64,000 nt of DNA, from the NCBI GenBank assembly GCA_041751215.1, contig JBGSXW010000005.1, forward strand, positions 195,664 to 259,663, read 5' to 3'. Position numbers and translations under genes: made by a program. The notes beneath the pieces were generated by a model. The model searched no databases and was not told the DNA's origin. It saw only the letters and a list, made by a program, of their open reading frames with translations. This DNA comes from Candidatus Saccharimonadales bacterium (lineage in GTDB: Bacteria > Patescibacteriota > Saccharimonadia > Saccharimonadales > JBGSXW01). Positions 4,118 to 32,426 of the stretch are shown here, in pieces. How positions within the stretch are numbered: position 1 is the first letter of the stretch; each line of letters begins with the position of its first letter.

Positions 4118-4182
4118 GCCTCTATTATAATCCTCACCAAGATATAGAAAAAGCAGCAACCAAATGGCTACTGCTTTTTCTA

Positions 4183-4317
4183 TGGCTCCGGGGAAAGGAT
4201 AATCGCACATTTCCTCACGTGCTCTCCGCCTAAGGCGGATGCGCGCGCTCGTTATGACCGAACCTTCGACCTAGTGGTTAACAGCCACCCGTCCGCCAAC
4301 TGGCGGACTACCCCGGA
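4183..4317 (-). pseudogene. tRNA-Asn(GUU)-like gene with about 55 nt inserted in the T arm (interrupted or degenerate tRNA)
   Basis: On the minus strand the acceptor is TCCGGGG/CCCCGGA followed by G and CCA. The D arm is GTCC-GCCAGTTGGC-GGAC. The anticodon arm is GGTGG-CTGTTAA-CCACT (GUU). T stem GAAGG/CCTTT is split by about 55 nt that contains the hairpin TCCGCC-TTA-GGCGGA. Total length is 135 nt. Confidence 0.45.
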
Positions 4318-4331
4318 TTATTAACAATTCT

Positions 4332-4406
4332 TGGCTCCGGAGGCCGGACTCGAACCGGCAGCCCTCTGATTAACAGTCAGATGCTCTACCATTGAGCTAC
4401 TCCGGA
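4332..4406 (-). tRNA. tRNA-Asn (anticodon GUU)
   Basis: A manual 75-nt cloverleaf reads TCCGGAG TA GCTC AATGGTA GAGC A TCTGA CTGTTAA TCAGA GGGCT GCCGG TTCGAGT CCGGC CTCCGGA G CCA. Confidence 0.9.
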
Positions 4407-4657
4407 TTACCAGAATTGTTAATAATTCCTTTTACGAACTGTCGTCCTCTGAAGCTTTTGAGTTGATTTTCGCGCTGTATGGCTGCCTGGCGGGTAGGTT
4501 GTTCTTCTTGATAGATTAACGTCCAGTTGCCCTTTTGCGCCGTGAAATGTTTTTCGCGCTTTGCCCTATGTTCGGATAGACGACGTTCAATGTTTGAGGT
4601 CTGACCGATATAAATGCTTTGCGTTAGGTCATTGTATATAACGTAAACAATAAACAT
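4397..4657 (-). CDS. GIY-YIG nuclease family protein (small stand-alone type)
   Basis: 86 aa. VYVIYNDLTQSIYIGQTSNIERRLSEH gives the GIY...YIG and Arg motifs, and a later RENQLK supplies the Glu. The last 10 nt including the TAG stop lie inside the 5' end of tRNA-Asn. Confidence 0.8.
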   Translation of the reverse strand: MFIVYVIYNDLTQSIYIGQTSNIERRLSEHRAKREKHFTAQKGNWTLIYQEEQPTRQAAIQRENQLKSFRGRQFVKGIINNSGNPE

Positions 4658-4671
4658 TTAGTAATTTTACG

Positions 4672-4705
4672 GCCACCTGTCCGCCAACTGGCGGACTACC
4701 CCGAT
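4672..4705 (-). repeat. orphan copy of the variant tRNA-Asn 5' half (acceptor 5' strand, D arm and 5' anticodon stem)
   Basis: The minus strand reads ATCGGGGTAGTCCGCCAGTTGGCGGACAGGTGGC. It is near-identical to 4317..4284 and diverges exactly at the start of the anticodon loop. The GIY-YIG ATG follows 12 nt downstream. Confidence 0.6.
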
Positions 4706-4726
4706 TTCTAATGTGCGTCCAAGGCT

Positions 4727-4761
4727 AGCCACCCGTCCGCCAACTGGCGGACTACCCCGGA
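4727..4761 (-). repeat. orphan copy of the variant tRNA-Asn 5' half
   Basis: The minus strand reads TCCGGGGTAGTCCGCCAGTTGGCGGACGGGTGGCT. It is identical to 4317..4283 and then diverges at anticodon-loop position 33/34. Confidence 0.6.
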
Positions 4762-4863
4762 TTACGCTAGCTAATTGTAATCGTAACCAGCTGAGGAGTA
4801 AACAGGAAAGAAAACTTGCATTGACTGATATAATTACAAGCATAAGCAGAGTCAACACAAGAT

Positions 4864-14847: not shown

Positions 14848-14851
14848 CAAA

Positions 14852-15012
14852 AGCACCTTTTCAAAAAGGTGCTCCAAAACTTTTACGCTGCTGTAAAAAC
14901 GCTCTTGATCTCGCTCGAGACAAAACTCGGGCAACTGCGGAATCCGTCTGAACAGTCCTCGTCGCGCCGGGCCTTGCTCTCACGGTCTCAGAGGTTTTTT
15001 ACAGATGCGTAA
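14852..15012 (+). repeat. structured intergenic repeat, copy A (divergent)
   Basis: H1 is GCACCTTTT-CAAA-AAGGTGC. The long hairpin has outer arms CTGTAAAAA/TTTTTACAG and a conserved apex TGCGGAATCCGTCTGAACAGTCCTC. It starts 5 nt after the corA stop. Confidence 0.7.
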
Positions 15013-15109
15013 GTGCACAAGCCGGCCGGCTTGTGCATGATTGCTGAAAAGAAGGTCAGAGAGTAGCTATGCTATTGCTGCAAAAACAGATCAAAGCTAG
15101 GCGGGTGAC

Positions 15110-16914: not shown

Positions 16915-17949
16915 ATGATGTTTATCCTTACCACGCTAGCTTTACTGGCACTTTTAGCAACTGCGACTTTGGCTACTGCCATGCAAATTGGTGTGCTTGG
17001 CGTAAGTCGATACGAGCTAAAACGTCGAAGTGAAGAAGGCGATGAAGAAGCGCGCTTAGTCTACCCACTCCGCAGTCGAAGCGGAGAACTAGTTACGCTA
17101 CTAACTTTAAAGAAGGTTTTTACCGAAGTTCTGTTCGTTGTCTTGCTGGCTTGGTGGCTTCCGGGAAGCAATATATTTACCTCGTTTCTTGCAATCGTAA
17201 TTGCCTCTGCAACTCTGGCAGCCATTGTTGAACTACTGCCTAGGGCTTGGCTTAAGCCATACGGTTTTAAGTTGGCTGCGCGCACAGCACCAATGGTTGT
17301 TTACGGCATGGATTTGATCAAGCCACTGAGCCTACCGGTAGTAAACAAATTTGGGATCGACGAACCCGATGGTCCAGAAGTTCACTCGGTCGAGGAACTA
17401 GTAGACATAATTAGCAACCGACGCACTCGTAAAGAGACAAAACTCGACGCGCAGCAAATTAGTGTCATCCAGGGAGCTTTGGGTTTTGGCACAATGGCAA
17501 TCCGGGAAATCATGACCCCGCGCAGTGTTATAACCGCCATTGATCAAAAAACTGAGCTCAATACTGGCCAGCTCAAAAAACTTCACGATAGTGGACATTC
17601 GCGGTTTCCGGTGTTTGAAGAATCCATTGATCACATAGTCAGCATCCTCTATCTTCACGACCTAGTGAGTTTGCGCCAAGAGCACATCACGGCTCGACAA
17701 GCTGCTAAAGGAAAGGTCTATTACGTTAACGAGGACGAAAACCTCGAGCATGTTTTAAACGCTTTTATCAAAACTCGCCATCATTTATTTATCGTTGTTA
17801 ATGAGTTTGAGGAAGTAGTCGGCCTAGTAACTATCGAGGATGTGCTTGAGCAAATTCTTGGTCGCAAGATCGTTGATGAGTTTGATAAGTACGATGATCT
17901 TCGTGAGGTTGCCGCTAAACGTAAACCTCAGGGCCAAAAGGCCACCTAA
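16915..17949 (+). CDS. CNNM/DUF21 transmembrane domain plus CBS-pair protein (HlyC/CorC family)
   Basis: 344 aa. About 4 N-terminal TM helices are followed by IREIMTPRSVITAID and VGLVTIEDVLEQI, typical of tandem CBS domains. Confidence 0.8.
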   Translation: MMFILTTLALLALLATATLATAMQIGVLGVSRYELKRRSEEGDEEARLVYPLRSRSGELVTLLTLKKVFTEVLFVVLLAWWLPGSNIFTSFLAIVIASATLAAIVELLPRAWLKPYGFKLAARTAPMVVYGMDLIKPLSLPVVNKFGIDEPDGPEVHSVEELVDIISNRRTRKETKLDAQQISVIQGALGFGTMAIREIMTPRSVITAIDQKTELNTGQLKKLHDSGHSRFPVFEESIDHIVSILYLHDLVSLRQEHITARQAAKGKVYYVNEDENLEHVLNAFIKTRHHLFIVVNEFEEVVGLVTIEDVLEQILGRKIVDEFDKYDDLREVAAKRKPQGQKAT

Positions 17950-17974
17950 TTTATCTTCAGTACAAACCGACCTG

Positions 17975-18170
17975 CTTTGTCGCTCCCGCGACGGGGGTTG
18001 TTGCCACTTTTTAAAAAGTGGCTCAAAACCTACCCGCTACTATAAAAACTCTCATGAGCCTGCTTCATCCAAACCTCGGGCGGCTGCGGAGTTCGTCCGC
18101 CAACTGGCGGACAGTCCTCGCCGCTCCGGGTTTTGACCTCGCAAGCTCAGAGGTTTTTACAGATGCGGAG
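17975..18170 (+). repeat. structured intergenic repeat, copy B (with an 11-nt apical insertion)
   Basis: It shares a 5' module (CTTTGTCGCTCCCGCGACGGGGG) with copy C. H1 is GCCACTTTT-TAAA-AAGTGGC. Helices are TCCAAACC/GGTTTTGA and GCGGC/GCCGC. The apex carries the perfect hairpin GTCCGCC-AACT-GGCGGAC (18095..18112). Confidence 0.7.
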
Positions 18171-18245
18171 GTGAAAAAGAGTTTCATGCCCTGTCTGCGA
18201 TTCGGACTCTGAGATCGGACCTGACTTCTGTTATAATTGGTCGCA

Positions 18246-19568
18246 ATGAGAACGTTAGCTAGAGACATCGCCGAACAGGTCGGCAAACCAACAACAATTC
18301 AGGGTTGGTTACATAAAAAACGCTTGCTTGGTGGACTGGCCTTTATTTTAGTTCGAGATCGCAGCGGTGTAGTTCAGGTTGTAGTGGAGGACAAAGACGA
18401 AGTCGAGAAGCTCCGAGGTTTGCAAATCGGAACAGTTCTAGAAGTTTCGGGCGACGTCACTAAAGAAGATCGAGCACCTGGCGGTGCCGAGATTCACGAG
18501 CCAAAGTTAAATGTTCTAGTTCCGGTGACCGACGAGCCCCCAATCGAAATCGATAAGCCTATTAGTCACAAGTCAGAAAACCTCGATACGCTGCTCGACT
18601 ATCGTCCGCTGACCCTGCGTAACCTACAAGAAAAAGCTATTTTTAAAGTTCAGGCAACAGTCTTAAAGGCTTTTCGTGAGTTTTTTGCCGACAACGATTT
18701 TACAGAGATAAATAGCCCCAAGCTTTTGGCCGAAGCCACCGAGGGCGGAGCCGAAACTTTCAAGCTAGACTACTTCGGCAAAACCGCCACGCTTGCACAA
18801 TCGGCTCAGTTTTATAAGCAAATGATGGTCGGTGTTTTTGAGCGAGTCTTTGAGACAAACCCAACTTATAGAGCCGAGCCAAGTGCCACGACTCGCCACA
18901 TGACCGAGTACATAACAATTGATGCCGAGATCGGGTTAATTGAGTTTGAAGAACTCATGAACTACGCCGGCGACTGCCTGGCTTACATAATCAAGACCGT
19001 CCAGTCTGAGTGTGCCCAGGAACTAAAATCTTGGAACGTGCAGTCCTTTACATTGCCAGAGAGTGGCAAAGATATTCCGCGACTTACCATTACTGAAATC
19101 CACGAACTTTTCTTACAGGCTACTAAAGAAGATCACACCGGTGAGGATGATTTGGCGCCCGCTGAAGAGAAATGGATTTGCGAACACGCCAAGAAAAATC
19201 TCAATTCCGAAGCCGTGTTTGTTGTAGGTTGGCCGGCAAAAAGTAAAACCTTTAAGTTTTATCATCGGGCAAACGAACAAGATCCTGAACTTGCTGATCG
19301 CGCCGACTTGCTATTCCGCGGAGTCGAGATCACCACCCTTAGCATGCGCGAAAACCGCTACGACAAGCTAATAGAACAACTCAAAGCCAATGGCGGCGAT
19401 CCAGATAGCGCCGGTTACGCACCGTTACTTAGCGCCTACAAGTACGGCATGCCACCGCACGGCGGGTGGGGTTGGGGACTAGAACGAACCGTGCAGCGTA
19501 TTTTAGGACTCAATAACGTCAAAGAAGCCACGCTTTTCCCACGGGATATTAATCGACTGAGCCCGTAG
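18246..19568 (+). CDS. aspS: aspartate--tRNA ligase, archaeal/eukaryal type (possibly non-discriminating)
   Basis: The N-terminal OB fold is IQGWLHKKRLLGGLAFILVRDRSG. Class IIb motifs are YRAEPSATTRHMTEY and GMPPHGGWGWGLERTV, ending in LFPRDINRLSP. At about 440 aa it matches archaeal-type AspRS length. The start is set at ATG 18246, 8 nt after TATAAT (18232..18237). The ORF track begins at TTG 18237. Confidence 0.85.
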   Translation: MRTLARDIAEQVGKPTTIQGWLHKKRLLGGLAFILVRDRSGVVQVVVEDKDEVEKLRGLQIGTVLEVSGDVTKEDRAPGGAEIHEPKLNVLVPVTDEPPIEIDKPISHKSENLDTLLDYRPLTLRNLQEKAIFKVQATVLKAFREFFADNDFTEINSPKLLAEATEGGAETFKLDYFGKTATLAQSAQFYKQMMVGVFERVFETNPTYRAEPSATTRHMTEYITIDAEIGLIEFEELMNYAGDCLAYIIKTVQSECAQELKSWNVQSFTLPESGKDIPRLTITEIHELFLQATKEDHTGEDDLAPAEEKWICEHAKKNLNSEAVFVVGWPAKSKTFKFYHRANEQDPELADRADLLFRGVEITTLSMRENRYDKLIEQLKANGGDPDSAGYAPLLSAYKYGMPPHGGWGWGLERTVQRILGLNNVKEATLFPRDINRLSP

Positions 19569-19570
19569 CT

Positions 19571-20524
19571 ATGAGTAATAGGATACTAATAACCGATAGC
19601 TTATTTATTAAAGAGGAACATGCTAGAAAGCTGACTGATGCGGGTTTTGAGGTTGAGCGATTAGACAAACCGGCCGCCACAGAAGATGAACTATGCGCAG
19701 CCGTAAAGGGTAAAGCTGGTTACATTTTAGGCGGCGTAGAAAAGGTGACAAAGAAAGTCATTGAGTCCGCCGATCAACTCAAGGCAATTGTATTTACAGG
19801 CACAGCTTGGGATGGATTTATTCCAGGGCACGAGCTTGCTACCCAAAAAGGGATTGCCATTGGTGCTGCGCCCCACCTGAATGCTTACGCGGTTGCCGAG
19901 TTTGGCTTTGCAACTACCCTGCTAATGACCCGCGACTTGATTGGTTTGCAGCGAGGAGGCAATAAGACATTTGAAACAACTAAGTCATTGCCAGATTTAA
20001 AAATAGGCATCGTGGGGCTCGGACATATCGGCAGACAGTACGCACAAATGGTTAGAGGCGCGGGTGCTAAACGCCTTTTTTATTACAACCGAAGCTCTCG
20101 TCCTGAATTCGAGAAAGAATTAGACATAAAGGCTCTTGATAAGGACCAGTTATTCGCAACCTGTGATGTCATCTTTGTAGCCCTTCATGTTGGTGCCGGG
20201 AAGCACTATATAGACCGAGATGATATTAATGCTATGAAGTCGAACTCACTGTTGGTTTCTATTGCCGACCCACTACTATTCGATCTTGACGCACTTCACG
20301 CTCGCTTAGTAAAAGATGAAATAAGAGGCGCATTTGACGAAAATATTAAAGAAGAAAGATTTACGAAGTTACCTCTTGATATTTGGTACACACCAAACGA
20401 ATCTTCAGCCTTTAATACCGGCAGAACAGTTCAAGAAGTAAGCGACAGTTGTGTGGATACAATGATCAATTTATTAAATACTGGCGAAGATAAGTATTTA
20501 ATGAATCCTGATTATAGAAAATGA
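19571..20524 (+). CDS. D-isomer-specific 2-hydroxyacid dehydrogenase family protein
   Basis: 317 aa with the NAD-binding segment IGIVGLGHIGRQYA. It starts 2 nt after aspS. Confidence 0.8.
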   Translation: MSNRILITDSLFIKEEHARKLTDAGFEVERLDKPAATEDELCAAVKGKAGYILGGVEKVTKKVIESADQLKAIVFTGTAWDGFIPGHELATQKGIAIGAAPHLNAYAVAEFGFATTLLMTRDLIGLQRGGNKTFETTKSLPDLKIGIVGLGHIGRQYAQMVRGAGAKRLFYYNRSSRPEFEKELDIKALDKDQLFATCDVIFVALHVGAGKHYIDRDDINAMKSNSLLVSIADPLLFDLDALHARLVKDEIRGAFDENIKEERFTKLPLDIWYTPNESSAFNTGRTVQEVSDSCVDTMINLLNTGEDKYLMNPDYRK

Positions 20525-21225
20525 AGCACGCCGATCAGCAACGCATTTGGGACGAGGAGCATGCAAATCCAACTGTTTTAATGCCAATGGATGAAGAGCG
20601 GCCGTCGGGTGCGATCGAACCCTTTTATGAATACATGCAAAGTTTGCCTGAGGCCGACAGTTATCAGACTGGTTTTGAGATTGGCTGCGGCAAAGGCCGA
20701 AACGTAAACTGGCTGGCTAATAAAGGTCTTGACGTCACTGGCTTAGATTTTTCGCCCAACGCAATAGCCGAGGCCCAAAAGCGAGCCAAGGCCCAGCATC
20801 TGAGCAGCGCCCACTTTATTGTTCATGACGTAATCAACCGTCTACCTTTTGCCGACGCTTCTTGCGACTTTGCCATAGATTGCTATGCCAGCACCGACAT
20901 CGAGAAGATTGCCGGACGGCAAAATGCTCGAGCCGAAATTACTCGCACACTGCGCTTGGGCGGCTTGTACCTGCTTTGTGTTATGGCCAGCGACAGTGAG
21001 TTTCACGAACAGATGGCACAAAAATATCCCGGCGATGAGCCTGGAAGTTTTCATCACCCAGAAAACGGCAAGTTTGAAAAAGCCTTTAGCGATGACGAGA
21101 TTAGCGATAACTTTATTGGTCAGGAATTTACCGTCGCTAAACGCGAAATTTATGAACGACAAACCGAGTTTGCCGGCCAAGCCTACAACACCCGGATGCA
21201 CCTTCTGATTATGAGAAAAAACTAA
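20521..21225 (+). CDS. class I SAM-dependent methyltransferase
   Basis: Motif I is FEIGCGKGRN and the post-I segment is VTGLDFS. An ATGA overlap with the upstream gene suggests translational coupling. Confidence 0.8.
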   Translation: MKHADQQRIWDEEHANPTVLMPMDEERPSGAIEPFYEYMQSLPEADSYQTGFEIGCGKGRNVNWLANKGLDVTGLDFSPNAIAEAQKRAKAQHLSSAHFIVHDVINRLPFADASCDFAIDCYASTDIEKIAGRQNARAEITRTLRLGGLYLLCVMASDSEFHEQMAQKYPGDEPGSFHHPENGKFEKAFSDDEISDNFIGQEFTVAKREIYERQTEFAGQAYNTRMHLLIMRKN

Positions 21226-21263
21226 ACCTGTTCTAAACAAACCGCTAACGGTATACTGCTAGC

Positions 21264-23087
21264 ATGCCAGAAAAAGACCTAGAGCCGAACGCAGACAAGG
21301 AAGAAACGTCGGTTGCACCAGAACCTGAAGAAACTCAGGACGATTCTGATGTTACCGAATCGGACGAGGATCAAGACGACTCCGAACTAGCAGAGGCCTT
21401 CGAGGATAAAGATAACGATAACGATAATGATGCTGACGAGCAAGAGTCAGAAGAACAGACCGAGGATGAGTCAGATGAAAAGTCAGATACAACGTCAAAT
21501 AAAAAGCCCAACGTCTTTAAGCGTTTTTGGGCTCACAAGAAGCTTCGTTACAGTGTAATAATCGCTATCTTGGCCGTAACCGGACTAATGATATTTGTGC
21601 CTAGTGCACGCTTTGCAACACTTGGCGCGCTGGGTTTTAGAGGTACGGTGATAGTTACCGTCAAAGACGCCGAGACTAGCCAGCCACTTAAAGATGTAAA
21701 AGTTTCGATCAATGGGCAAGACTCGAGTACTAACGAAGAAGGTTTAGCAACTATTAACGAAGTTAAACTGGGCAATCATAATCTAGAAGTTTCTAAAACG
21801 GCTTACGCTACCAGCTCCCAAACTTTGACAGTTAGTGTCGGTGATACCAGGCCTGACGAAGTTTTGTTGGCTCCTACCGGAACACCGTTTACATTTAACG
21901 TGACCGACTGGATATCAGACGCGGCCATTGTTAAAGCCGAAGTTAGCTATCAAGATAGTAGCGCGTTTTCTGACGAGGACGGACAAGTTCGATTAACTGT
22001 GCCACCGCTTAACGAATCTGAGTTTATCGTTTCTATTAAGGCCGAGGGTTTTAAGCCGGCTGAGGCCAAGATTCAAGCCAGCGTAGTCGAACCCACCAGC
22101 GTTAAACTTGTGCCCGTTGGTAAACGAGTGTTTATATCCAAGCGGGGTGGGGTCTACGATTTGTATAAATCTGACCTCGACGGTAAGCGCGAGCAAAAGC
22201 TTGTAGCCGGAACTGGCAAAGAGCGAGATGAACTGGCCTTAAGTGTTAACTACAAAGCTAACCGTGCCATCTTGGTTTCTAGCCGTGAAGGAAAACGAAA
22301 CACCAACGGTGAGCTAATGGATGGAATTTTCTCGGTCGATCTCAAAAGCGGTGAACTAACAAAAATTGCCGAGGCTTACCGAATTCAGTTGATCGGCTGG
22401 GTTGGAGATGCGGTTGTTTATACAAAATATTCATATCTTGCCCCCGTCAATAAACAGTATGTGATCAGTTCTTATAACGTAAGTGACGGTGCTACTGCCA
22501 ATATTGCTAACGCCTCTGGTTTTAGCGACATTTTAACAACTGATAGCTACGTTTTTTACATACCGGTTAGCTATAGTACCCCTGCAATCAAGCCATACCT
22601 TTACCGTAAAGACGTTAACGGCACAAATCGAACCATTATTCGAGCTTCCGAGACTTGGAGTGTGTTAAGGCAGGGCAGCAACAGCCTAATCATTAGTGCA
22701 CCTGACAATACTTGGCTAGAAGCAGACTTAACCGGCGCTAACTTGCTAACCCTAGACGGACCTCCGGCGCGCGCTTACCGCTCAGTGTCTCATCTTTATG
22801 TAGCTAATCCCGACAGCAACGAATCACTTTGGGTTGATCAGCGCGACGGCAAAGGGGTGCTCTTGCTCCATAAGCCCGGAACTCCCGATAGCAGCGACAA
22901 GGCCCTAGTCCGACAATCTGGGCTTCGCACTCCAGTGGCCTGGGTCGACAACACACGCGTGATTTTTAGGGTTAATACCGATCAAGAAACCGCCGACTAC
23001 ATCGTCAGCATAAACGGCGGCGAGGCAAAGAAAATTAGCGACGTTAGCGACGTAGGCTCAGAAGATCGCTATCACTACTATTACTAA
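21264..23087 (+). CDS. membrane-anchored surface protein with an acidic N-tail, carboxypeptidase-regulatory-like beta-sandwich repeats and a TolB-like beta-propeller region
   Basis: 607 aa. The order is a D/E-rich N-terminus, one TM segment, VIVTVKDAETSQPLKDVKVSINGQ-type repeats, then DLYKSDLDGKREQKLV / SSREGKRNTNGE propeller-like blades. The domain calls are pattern-based. Confidence 0.55.
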   Translation: MPEKDLEPNADKEETSVAPEPEETQDDSDVTESDEDQDDSELAEAFEDKDNDNDNDADEQESEEQTEDESDEKSDTTSNKKPNVFKRFWAHKKLRYSVIIAILAVTGLMIFVPSARFATLGALGFRGTVIVTVKDAETSQPLKDVKVSINGQDSSTNEEGLATINEVKLGNHNLEVSKTAYATSSQTLTVSVGDTRPDEVLLAPTGTPFTFNVTDWISDAAIVKAEVSYQDSSAFSDEDGQVRLTVPPLNESEFIVSIKAEGFKPAEAKIQASVVEPTSVKLVPVGKRVFISKRGGVYDLYKSDLDGKREQKLVAGTGKERDELALSVNYKANRAILVSSREGKRNTNGELMDGIFSVDLKSGELTKIAEAYRIQLIGWVGDAVVYTKYSYLAPVNKQYVISSYNVSDGATANIANASGFSDILTTDSYVFYIPVSYSTPAIKPYLYRKDVNGTNRTIIRASETWSVLRQGSNSLIISAPDNTWLEADLTGANLLTLDGPPARAYRSVSHLYVANPDSNESLWVDQRDGKGVLLLHKPGTPDSSDKALVRQSGLRTPVAWVDNTRVIFRVNTDQETADYIVSINGGEAKKISDVSDVGSEDRYHYYY

Positions 23088-23119
23088 GACTGATTTCTTT
23101 TCAGAATGAACCGAAGTGT

Positions 23120-23303
23120 CTTTGTCGCTCCCGCGACGGGGGTATTGCCACTTTTCATAAAGTGGCTCAAAACTCCCCCGCTAACTACCAAAACACTCTT
23201 GAAACTAGTTCAGCCAGACCTCGGGTAGCTGCGGAGTCCGTCCGAACAGTCCTCGCTACGCCGGGCTTTGGCTTCCTAGTCTCAGAGGTTTTGGTAGAGG
23301 CGG
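23120..23303 (+). repeat. structured intergenic repeat, copy C
   Basis: Very similar to copy D, with helices CTACCAAAAC/GTTTTGGTAG and GTAGC/GCTAC and apex TGCGGAGTCCGTCCGAACAGTCCTC. It also carries the 5' module shared with copy B. Confidence 0.7.
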
Positions 23304-23346
23304 TAAGGAGAAAATGCACCGGACCGAGTAATGATAGAATAAGGGT

Positions 23347-32125: not shown

Positions 32126-32130
32126 AAGAT

Positions 32131-32288
32131 TGCCACTTTTTAAAAAGTGGCTCAAAACTTTCCCGCTGCTACCAAAACACTCTTGAAACTAGTTCAGCCA
32201 GAGCTCGGGTAGCTGTGGAGTCCGTCCGAACAGTCCTCGCTACGCCGGGCTCTGGCTTCCAAGTCTCAGAGGTTTTGGTAGGGGCGGG
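32131..32288 (+). repeat. structured intergenic repeat, copy D
   Basis: It starts 6 nt after the permease stop. H1 is GCCACTTTT-TAAA-AAGTGGC. Helices are CCCGC..CTACCAAAAC..CTCT/AGAG..GTTTTGGTAG..GCGGG, GCCAGAGC/GCTCTGGC and GTAGC/GCTAC. Confidence 0.7.
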
Positions 32289-32334
32289 CTCTAGCTTAAT
32301 TCTCCCCTGCCTGCAGGCAAGCTTGCATTGCATC

Positions 32335-32405
32335 GCTGAAAAGTGGTCAGTAACAATATCGTCATTCCTGCGCTCCTAGCTTCAGATGTTTTGGTAGGGG
32401 CGGGG
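32335..32405 (+). repeat. internally deleted second copy of the structured repeat
   Basis: AAAAGTGGTCAGTAAC resembles the H1 3' half. CTAGCTTCAGATGTTTTGGTAGGGGCGGGG duplicates the right arm of copy D (32258..32288). Confidence 0.55.
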
Positions 32406-32426
32406 TTGAGTTATAATCACAAAACT

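Follow-up and report, generated by a model that had tools for sequence, protein, structure and literature searches.

A dispersed palindromic repeat upstream of aspS in a Saccharimonadales genome carries at its variable tip a GC-rich hairpin common to tRNA remnants

Dispersed palindromic repeats have been described in several groups of bacteria. Rickettsia palindromic elements (RPE) are long-hairpin repeats of ∼100–150 nt that are scattered through a reduced genome, both between genes and in frame within essential genes. Enterobacterial repetitive intergenic consensus sequences (ERIC, also termed intergenic repeat units, IRU) are ∼130-nt imperfect palindromes of transcribed intergenic regions, best conserved at their centre, some copies having extra internal segments at fixed positions; in yersiniae, the ERIC RNA hairpin has been reported to affect the stability of flanking mRNA. 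Repetitive extragenic palindromic (REP) units are shorter (20–40 nt) and accompanied by RAYT transposases, and in bacterial interspersed mosaic elements (BIME) they form mosaics of hairpin modules between co-directional genes. REP, BIME and ERIC structures shield the mRNA that precedes them against 3′ exonucleases, or work as partial terminators or insulators. The present analysis concerns a 64-kb stretch of the genome of a Candidatus Saccharimonadales bacterium (contig JBGSXW010000005.1; hereafter the window), which contains four full copies (A to D) of a ∼165-nt repeat, all in the same orientation, and one partial copy (Table 1). Copy B lies upstream of aspS, the gene for an archaeal-type aspartyl-tRNA synthetase (AspRS), and bears at its apex an 18-nt hairpin that recurs in tRNA-Asn-like sequences elsewhere in the window. 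The sequence at 17975–18236 is of a kind already described, the dispersed structured palindromic repeats, among which it represents a new family, and it bears at its variable tip a GC hairpin common to tRNA remnants. It is probable that copy B belongs with intergenic repeats of the RPE, ERIC or miniature inverted-repeat transposable element (MITE) kind and obtained its tip hairpin through an event at the DNA level, rather than being a tRNA-sensing device.

Every copy begins directly after the stop codon of a plus-strand gene and ahead of another plus-strand gene. In each, a short perfect palindrome (GCCACTTTTTAAAAAGTGGC) is joined by a CAAAAC linker to an irregular hairpin ∼135 nt long. The 291-nt copy B region folds with a z-score of −6.3. 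RNAalifold applied across the four copies yielded 51 conserved pairs, 12 of them compensatory with both sides changed; in an explicit count, 95% of cells were paired compared with 34–47% when the 3′ partners were slid, and the observed covariation score was reached by none of 500 shuffles. Counts of G-U and A-C cells (8 vs 6) are too close to tell which strand folds. Copies B and C have an extra upstream hairpin in common (GTCGCTCCCGCGAC...; 17975–17999 and 23119–23144), and A and D a downstream module made up of a hairpin and GCTGAAAAGnnGGTCAG (15016–15060 and 32310–32360). The repeats are mosaics of modules, as the upstream module of B recurs only in copy C.

No Rfam 15 family was found for the repeat, either with the whole window at the gathering cut-off or with 17950–18250 at E ≤ 10, and Rfam searches of the window, copy B (E ≤ 10), the tRNA locus and six related loci returned three tRNAs and nothing else. 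Blastn gave no match for copy B in phages or for copy C in plasmids, and a full-text literature search on the core and hairpin sequences and on Saccharibacteria repeats yielded nothing relevant.

Related copies were sought with the apex left free, using the core pattern CTCGGGNNNCTGNGGA N8-38 ACAGTCCTCG in metagenome contigs and viral contigs, and were detected at 14 metagenome loci and in one uncultivated virus genome. All of these matches extend beyond the pattern, with GCGGAACTC ahead of the apex and CTCAGACAGTCCTCGCCG behind it. Between GGAACTC and TCAGACAGTCC, the tip hairpin differs by lineage (GCTTCGC, GCGCTATGCGC, GGCCCTTCGGGCC or GGCCCGGCGATGAAACTGCCGGTCC), and the GTCCGCC-AACT-GGCGGAC of copy B begins at the equivalent position, after GGAGTTC. 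Since the relatives keep the core and change the apical hairpin, the hairpin of copy B occupies the variable tip of the family. Compared in this way, copy B has the layout typical of the family, and it is A, C, and D that are nearly tipless. Among the high-GC relatives, L124, L127, L132, and L133, and likewise L142, have a small CACTTTTC...GAAAAGT hairpin and then CAAAAG upstream, as in the window. Unannotated relatives with the 16 + 13-nt core are carried by high-GC metagenome contigs and a Variovorax paradoxus chromid (L124:1711–1883, L127:719–870, L133:210–393 and L142:1500–1700). The blastn matches of L124 were confined to stretches without annotation in replicons of Variovorax, Ralstonia, and Iodobacter; the high-GC members are probably from Burkholderiales.

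In a low-GC group (L121 and the similar loci among L122–L135), the repeat is embedded in a topA open reading frame (ORF) that runs uninterrupted for 829 aa on the opposite strand (L121:10194–10368). Judged by its homologues, the host of the L121-type topA is an oral saccharibacterium (oral taxon 488, Nanosynbacter). Residues 386–438 of the L121 TopA are without counterpart in solved TopA structures (PDB), and in TopA proteins that are 96–98% identical elsewhere a ∼55–57-aa in-frame segment is present in some and absent in others; in one oral Saccharibacteria lineage, that site is occupied by another insert. As the topA copy is present or absent among near-identical proteins, the behaviour of the family is that of a mobile palindromic element. 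Orthologous sites with and without an insertion were seen in topA and in the region upstream of aspS, and together with several non-coding copies of <300 nt and a long inverted-repeat architecture this gives the window family characters of dispersed palindromic repeats of the MITE, RPE or ERIC kind.

Of the systems described so far, the repeats introduced above are among the most similar. As with RPE, a copy of the window family adds ∼55 aa to an essential-gene product, the TopA of oral Saccharibacteria, and close relatives lack it; in contrast to RPE, the host belongs to another phylum, no sequence relationship exists, and an inner core conserved across very different genomes is combined with a variable tip. 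The ERIC sequences resemble the family in size, setting and conserved centre, but copy B has no blastn match (word size 11) in 5,426 Escherichia coli genomes, the host differs, and the window family has its four copies within 64 kb in a single orientation. A 3′ stem-loop barrier for the upstream mRNA would be expected of the window repeats as it is of REP and BIME, whereas their unit is far longer and no transposase was found near the window copies.

The 18-mer of the copy B apex (GTCCGCCAACTGGCGGAC) has four exact plus-strand sites in the window, 18095–18112 in copy B and 4291–4308, 4679–4696 and 4735–4752 in the tRNA-Asn-like sequences. With up to two mismatches allowed, eight occurrences were observed (four sites on two strands) compared with 0.01 expected from dinucleotide-preserving shuffles, and chance cannot explain the sharing. 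Agreement of two perfect 7-bp/4-nt hairpins by chance has a probability of ∼4^-11 (own arithmetic), so a shared origin of the copy B and tRNA-like hairpins is a reasonable reading. An earlier note on this DNA, made from the letters alone, had described the perfect hairpin and its match to tRNA-Asn-like 5′ halves, and both are borne out. With a leading C the identity becomes a 19-mer common to 18094–18112, 4290–4308 and 4734–4752; the note had the middle range right and the last one nucleotide too far along (4735–4753). It was also correct that the third 5′ half (4679–4696) shares only the 18-nt hairpin, with T in place of the preceding C, and that the plus-strand sequence is antisense to the D arm, the fragments being on the minus strand.

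The full tRNA-Asn-like variant has the anticodon loop CTGTTAA and a T loop with an insert of ∼60 nt, which includes a second hairpin, TCCGCC-TAA-GGCGGA, at 4225. Neither copy B nor the variant and its fragments were called as tRNA by ARAGORN or Rfam RF00005, which called only the canonical gene at this locus. A gene for an 86-aa GIY-YIG protein (4397–4657, minus strand) separates the two tRNA-like 5′ fragments from the canonical tRNA-Asn, with whose 5′ end it overlaps by 10 nt, and the locus as a whole looks like a rearranged or invaded tRNA gene.

In a MAFFT alignment, copy B exceeds A, C, and D by 10 nt at the apex and shows a single A-to-G difference there, which is the same as the 11-nt insertion of the earlier note (11 nt replacing one). 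The loops of A, C, and D hold CGTCCG or CGTCTG and also AACAG, those of C and D already reading CGTCCG-A-ACAG, and new in copy B is only CCAACTGGCG(G), bracketed by 6 + 2 nt of microhomology. Identity with the tRNA-like fragments ends exactly at the hairpin edges, the flanks being unrelated, and this together with the bracketing microhomology fits an ectopic templated copy or gene conversion. The long hairpin of copy B has a fold of −70.0 kcal/mol, which falls to −57.3 kcal/mol when the 10 nt are removed; the tip alone gives −12.9 kcal/mol. That the tip was made by mis-joined reads at a palindrome is barely credible. An independent Logan contig (L001, window positions 18101–23151) does start inside the hairpin, at 18101, but it fuses the 3′ half of the hairpin to the right flank of copy B, holding loop, 3′ arm and flank in one piece, and the tip is in register with the architecture of the family.

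The direction of copying is favoured to have been from the tRNA-like sequences to copy B by the tRNA-like contexts of the hairpin in other genomes of the Candidate Phyla Radiation (CPR). Conversely, copy B could preserve an older tip lost by the other copies, since it shares GACAGTCC with the out-groups. Under that scheme the founder of the repeats in this genome had TCCGCC-AACT-GGCGGA, A, C, and D descend from a copy that lost 10 nt by slippage between CG...CG repeats, and the tRNA-like fragments obtained their hairpin from the repeat, unless a third source supplied both. Every out-group member of the family has a tip hairpin at that position, GACAGTCC is replaced by a derived AACAGTCC in A, C, and D, and copy B minus CCAACTGGCG is CGTCCGGACAG, one substitution away from the C/D loop CGTCCGAACAG. 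Against this, the hairpin occurs in tRNA-like contexts of other CPR genomes that show no such repeat, and tips that are wholly different between lineages provide no evidence of an old one. A founder copy that already had this tip is decidedly unlikely.

The 18-mer was searched for in 185,579 species-representative genomes and detected at no fewer than 119 loci, one match per locus, compared with ∼17 expected for a random 18-mer (own arithmetic). The matches listed come from Bacteroidota, Patescibacteria, Verrucomicrobiota, Actinomycetota, Pseudomonadota, and other phyla; none of them is inside an ARAGORN tRNA, no flank consensus exists among them, several are plainly coding (VRQLAD in GntR-like genes), and 28 of 117 extend into longer stems, which they cap (∼5% expected). 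In viral contigs the 18-mer was found three times and two composition-matched control hairpins three times and twice; because the controls are equally frequent, the recurrence across genomes is that of any GC-rich perfect hairpin. The earlier note had called for a census of the 18-mer, holding that scatter over many unrelated sites would mark it as a generic mini-repeat. Such scatter is what was found across genomes, and within the genome itself the census covers ∼67 kb, the window and a further 3.4 kb from a Logan contig, the latter containing neither the hairpin nor the repeat.

In a few genomes the hairpin is placed much as it is in the window. Another Saccharibacteria metagenome-assembled genome (MAG) has, at L080 (3560–3810, minus strand), a promoter-proximal duplicate of tRNA-Arg(TCG), with the canonical gene 200 nt downstream. 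The duplicate is canonical in the acceptor strand, anticodon arm, variable region and 5′ T stem, but the 18-mer, its loop inverted, stands exactly in place of the D arm, and an insert of ∼70 nt disrupts the T loop; the design is the same as that of the tRNA-Asn-like variant of the window (4175–4320). At the same locus, a 5′ fragment of tRNA-Lys likewise stands ahead of a canonical tRNA-Lys. In a Roizmanbacteria MAG (L023), the hairpin takes the D-arm position of an Asn-like fragment, and L038 has a 3′ fragment of tRNA-Ser that carries it. In a Chitinophagales MAG (L051; 3224–3960), five or six degenerate tRNA-Met units of ∼120 nt lie in tandem behind a canonical tRNA-Met, and in each of them the 3′ anticodon stem and variable region are swapped for TCCGCC-loop-GGCGGA, with differing loops. 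A GIY-YIG gene follows this array. As a general link, the association of GIY-YIG genes with the hairpin was rejected, such genes being near only 2 of the ∼119 loci listed, and so was the idea that the matches are tRNA D arms in general, since among those listed only L080 and the full variant of the window pass the anticodon-arm test.

These cases invite the explanation that a (G)TCCGCC-N3-6-GGCGGA(C) unit is portable in its own right and lands in, or replaces, the loops and arms of stem-loops (tRNA duplicates, repeat tips, terminator tips), copy B and the fragments having acquired it separately. The exact D-arm replacement in L080, the fragments of L023 and L038, the L051 array and the capping of longer stems speak for it, as do 24 further TCCGCC...GGCGGA hairpins in ∼1.1 Mb, compared with 0–6 for nine control stems at loci that had been preselected for the 18-mer. 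That preselection weighs on the other side, together with the equal frequency of the control hairpins in viral contigs and the want of a flank consensus; the enrichment of the AGCT-palindrome (55 vs 9) is largely coding (IRQLAE/VRQLAD), and neither a mechanism nor an enzyme was identified. As the full account of the tip it is on balance rather unlikely. A bolder version makes the hairpin a selected portable module that turns CPR tRNA duplicates into elbow-less look-alikes and, grafted near aspS, ties the locus to a factor that recognizes them, for example a processing nuclease or the non-discriminating AspRS itself. In such look-alikes the D arm may be locked in a 7-bp stem and the T loop disrupted, with the acceptor and anticodon arms kept, as exemplified by the Asn-like forms in the window and the Roizmanbacteria MAG and the Arg-like form in the other Saccharibacteria MAG. 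This would amount to a new kind of tRNA-decoy circuit, and is highly improbable.

The position of copy B next to aspS led the earlier note to weigh two possibilities, coincidence arising from a small mobile hairpin, or regulation. Homologues of the encoded AspRS are from Saccharimonadales and are annotated as aspartate–tRNA(Asn) ligase or non-discriminating AspRS (NCBI, JGI), and the window enzyme is probably non-discriminating as well; asnS and gatCAB are not among the ten large ORFs scanned. Copy B ends ∼75 nt ahead of the aspS ATG (18246). The extended −10 TGTTATAAT (18229–18237) lies downstream of the repeat, ends 8 nt ahead of the ATG, and belongs to the sole promoter-like (sigma-70-like) site in 17800–18400, CTGAGA-17-TATAAT with a TG extension. 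The same TGTTATAAT stands ahead of aspS in the relative L137 (141–158), at a distance of 8–10 nt from the ATG in the two genomes. The arrangement suggests that aspS mRNAs may be leaderless or near-leaderless in these Saccharimonadales. A terminator scan detected no intrinsic terminator-like site at or after the long hairpin or its tip, and only a weak one at 17988–18004; the tip of copy B continues into AGTCCTCG, not into a U tract.

The CBS-gene/aspS pair is kept in Saccharimonadales relatives (AspRS 79–82% identical) with no element between the two genes. The spacer is 7 nt in L139, 134 nt of unrelated sequence in L140, contains a small ORF in L136, and in L137 has nothing but the promoter-like TGTTATAAT. 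Searched with an nhmmer profile built from copies A to D, ∼80 kb of these four loci gave no match. As the element is absent there, copy B is a lineage-specific insertion, and the other three copies precede unrelated genes (hydrolase, pterin dehydratase and dus).

A regulatory device, in which the hairpin allows AspRS, tRNA-Asn or antisense pairing with tRNA-like RNAs to tune aspS, could appeal to the adjoining, probably non-discriminating, AspRS, to the full complementarity of the plus-strand RNA with the D-arm region of the tRNA-like transcripts, and to the lack of a strong terminator between the upstream gene and aspS. Class IIb synthetases read the anticodon and acceptor parts of tRNA, and what is shared here is the D-arm-position hairpin only, without the determinants in those parts. 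The aspS-sense strand matches the D arm in the stem alone, its loop being the complement of the D-loop, and both antisense partners are locked in 7-bp GC stems (−12.9 kcal/mol). With the D-arm-only sharing, the complementary loop, the locked stems and the lack of conservation in relatives, a tRNA-sensing role is unlikely. Copy B resembles T-box leaders in lying upstream of an aminoacyl-tRNA synthetase gene and in having a tRNA connection, but it possesses no specifier loop, T-box sequence or antiterminator, matches neither T-box nor any other Rfam family in the scans described above, and lies upstream of the predicted promoter at a place where the four relatives have no element. Given also that the 18-mer is present at so many unrelated loci, regulation of aspS through the hairpin is very doubtful. 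Of the two possibilities weighed earlier, the coincidence of a small mobile hairpin comes close to the evidence, in that the hairpin sits at a variable tip and is widely scattered, and the regulatory link is left unsupported; the connection between hairpin and aspS is positional only.

The preferred reading, a selfish-looking repeat with a secondarily altered tip, can be set out as follows. In the lineage of the window, the repeat would have been inserted between the CNNM/CBS-domain gene and aspS, with an inner core held by sequence conservation and a tip free to vary, and it is exactly at this tip that the 18-nt hairpin would have been gained. The likeliest origins are copying from elsewhere in the genome or arrival as a portable module, and the effect of the hairpin would be structural. 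We infer a gain by ectopic templated copying or by gene conversion, for which the microhomology CGTCCG...AC of the pre-existing loop would have provided the seed; alternatively, the same portable GC hairpin may have landed in both the repeat tip and the tRNA-like fragments. Once transcribed, copy B would fold at the 3′ flank of the CBS-gene transcript into a stem-loop of great stability, to which the tip would add ∼13 kcal/mol. By analogy with REP, BIME and ERIC elements, such a stem-loop may serve as a barrier or insulator, through 3′-end protection or partial termination of the upstream mRNA, whereas transcription of aspS would presumably start at the extended −10 promoter of the gene itself and give a leaderless or near-leaderless mRNA.

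Several observations weigh against this reading. The exact 18-mer in place of the D arm of the L080 tRNA-Arg duplicate points to a recurrent, perhaps selected, module and not to a one-off copying accident. No canonical terminator follows the repeat, making read-through from the upstream gene into aspS possible and, with it, a cis effect of the repeat on aspS expression. A core that is conserved both in a CPR genome and in high-GC sequences, probably of Burkholderiales, is more than one would normally expect of a purely selfish repeat, and a further function may lie behind it. Neither target-site duplications nor a transposase, both part of the strict definition of a MITE, were identified for the family, so that the term mobile refers to presence and absence at orthologous sites, and the view of the genome extends over ∼67 kb.

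For the link proposed at the outset the outcome is mostly negative. As the tRNA/aspS coincidence comes down to the variable tip of a selfish-looking palindromic repeat, copy B does not merit annotation as an aspS leader or riboswitch. The analysis yielded two by-products, a structured repeat family absent from Rfam, with an irregular, sequence-conserved inner helix, which is present in Saccharibacteria and high-GC bacteria and can lie in frame in topA, and the recurrence of the same 18-nt hairpin in the D-arm place of CPR tRNA duplicates. Both bear on gene calling in CPR MAGs through spurious ORFs and missed pseudo-tRNAs, and the repeat core and the D-arm-replacing hairpin are modest leads for repeat biology in reduced genomes. 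One plus-strand ORF of 98 aa (17840–18136), extending from the CBS-gene end across the repeat as far as the apical hairpin, almost certainly owes its call to the repeat and is spurious.

Table 1. Positions of the repeat copies, tRNA-related sequences and neighbouring genes in the window.
Feature	Position	Strand	Remarks
Copy A	14851–15014	+	after corA, before alpha/beta hydrolase gene; without apical hairpin
Copy B	17999–18173	+	after CNNM/CBS-domain gene, before aspS; with apical hairpin
Copy C	23143–23308	+	after CarboxypepD_reg protein gene, before pterin-4a-carbinolamine dehydratase gene; without apical hairpin
Copy D	32128–32289	+	after ABC-2 permease gene, before dus; without apical hairpin
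Partial duplicate of copy D 3′ arm	32368–32408		
Upstream hairpin module CTTTGTCGCTCCCGCGACGGGGGT	17975–17999	+	common only to copy C (23119–23144)
Small perfect-palindrome hairpin GCCACTTTTTAAAAAGTGGC, then TCAAAAC	18003–18022	+	first of the conserved repeat modules
Long imperfect hairpin of copy B, ∼135 nt	18034–18168	+	core CTCGGGCGGCTGCGGA ... ACAGTCCTCGCCG; fold −70.0 kcal/mol
Apical hairpin GTCCGCC-AACT-GGCGGAC	18095–18112	+	tip of copy B; adds ∼ −12.7 kcal/mol
Predicted aspS promoter	18209–18237	+	−35-like CTGAGA, 17-nt spacer, extended −10 TGTTATAAT (TATAAT + TG)
CNNM/CBS-domain gene, upstream of aspS	16915–17949	+	repeat in its 3′ flank
aspS, archaeal-type AspRS, 440 aa	18246–19568	+	Pfam tRNA-synt_2 (class II core) and OB fold
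tRNA-Asn-like full variant	4175–4320	−	acceptor TCCGGGG/CCCCGGA; 18-mer in D-arm position (4291–4308); GTT anticodon arm
Two 5′ fragments of tRNA-Asn-like variant	4671–4708, 4727–4764	−	18-mer in each; just upstream of GIY-YIG ORF
Canonical tRNA-Asn	4332–4406		ARAGORN and Rfam

Integron attC sites offer a further comparison, as they too are imperfect hairpins that lie just after ORFs, with conserved unpaired stem bases and a 'variable terminal structure' at the tip. The base of the window repeat, however, is CCCGCT.../...GCGG and lacks the R″ (RYYYAAC) and R′ (GTTRRRY) boxes, its conservation is near the tip and not at the base, and its neighbours are housekeeping genes 3–9 kb apart without an adjacent IntI. 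A gene for a tyrosine integrase (Phage_integrase) and an HTH_17 excisionase-like gene are found ∼1.7–3.1 kb past the right end of the window (L215:13068–14493), so that an integrative element is nearby.

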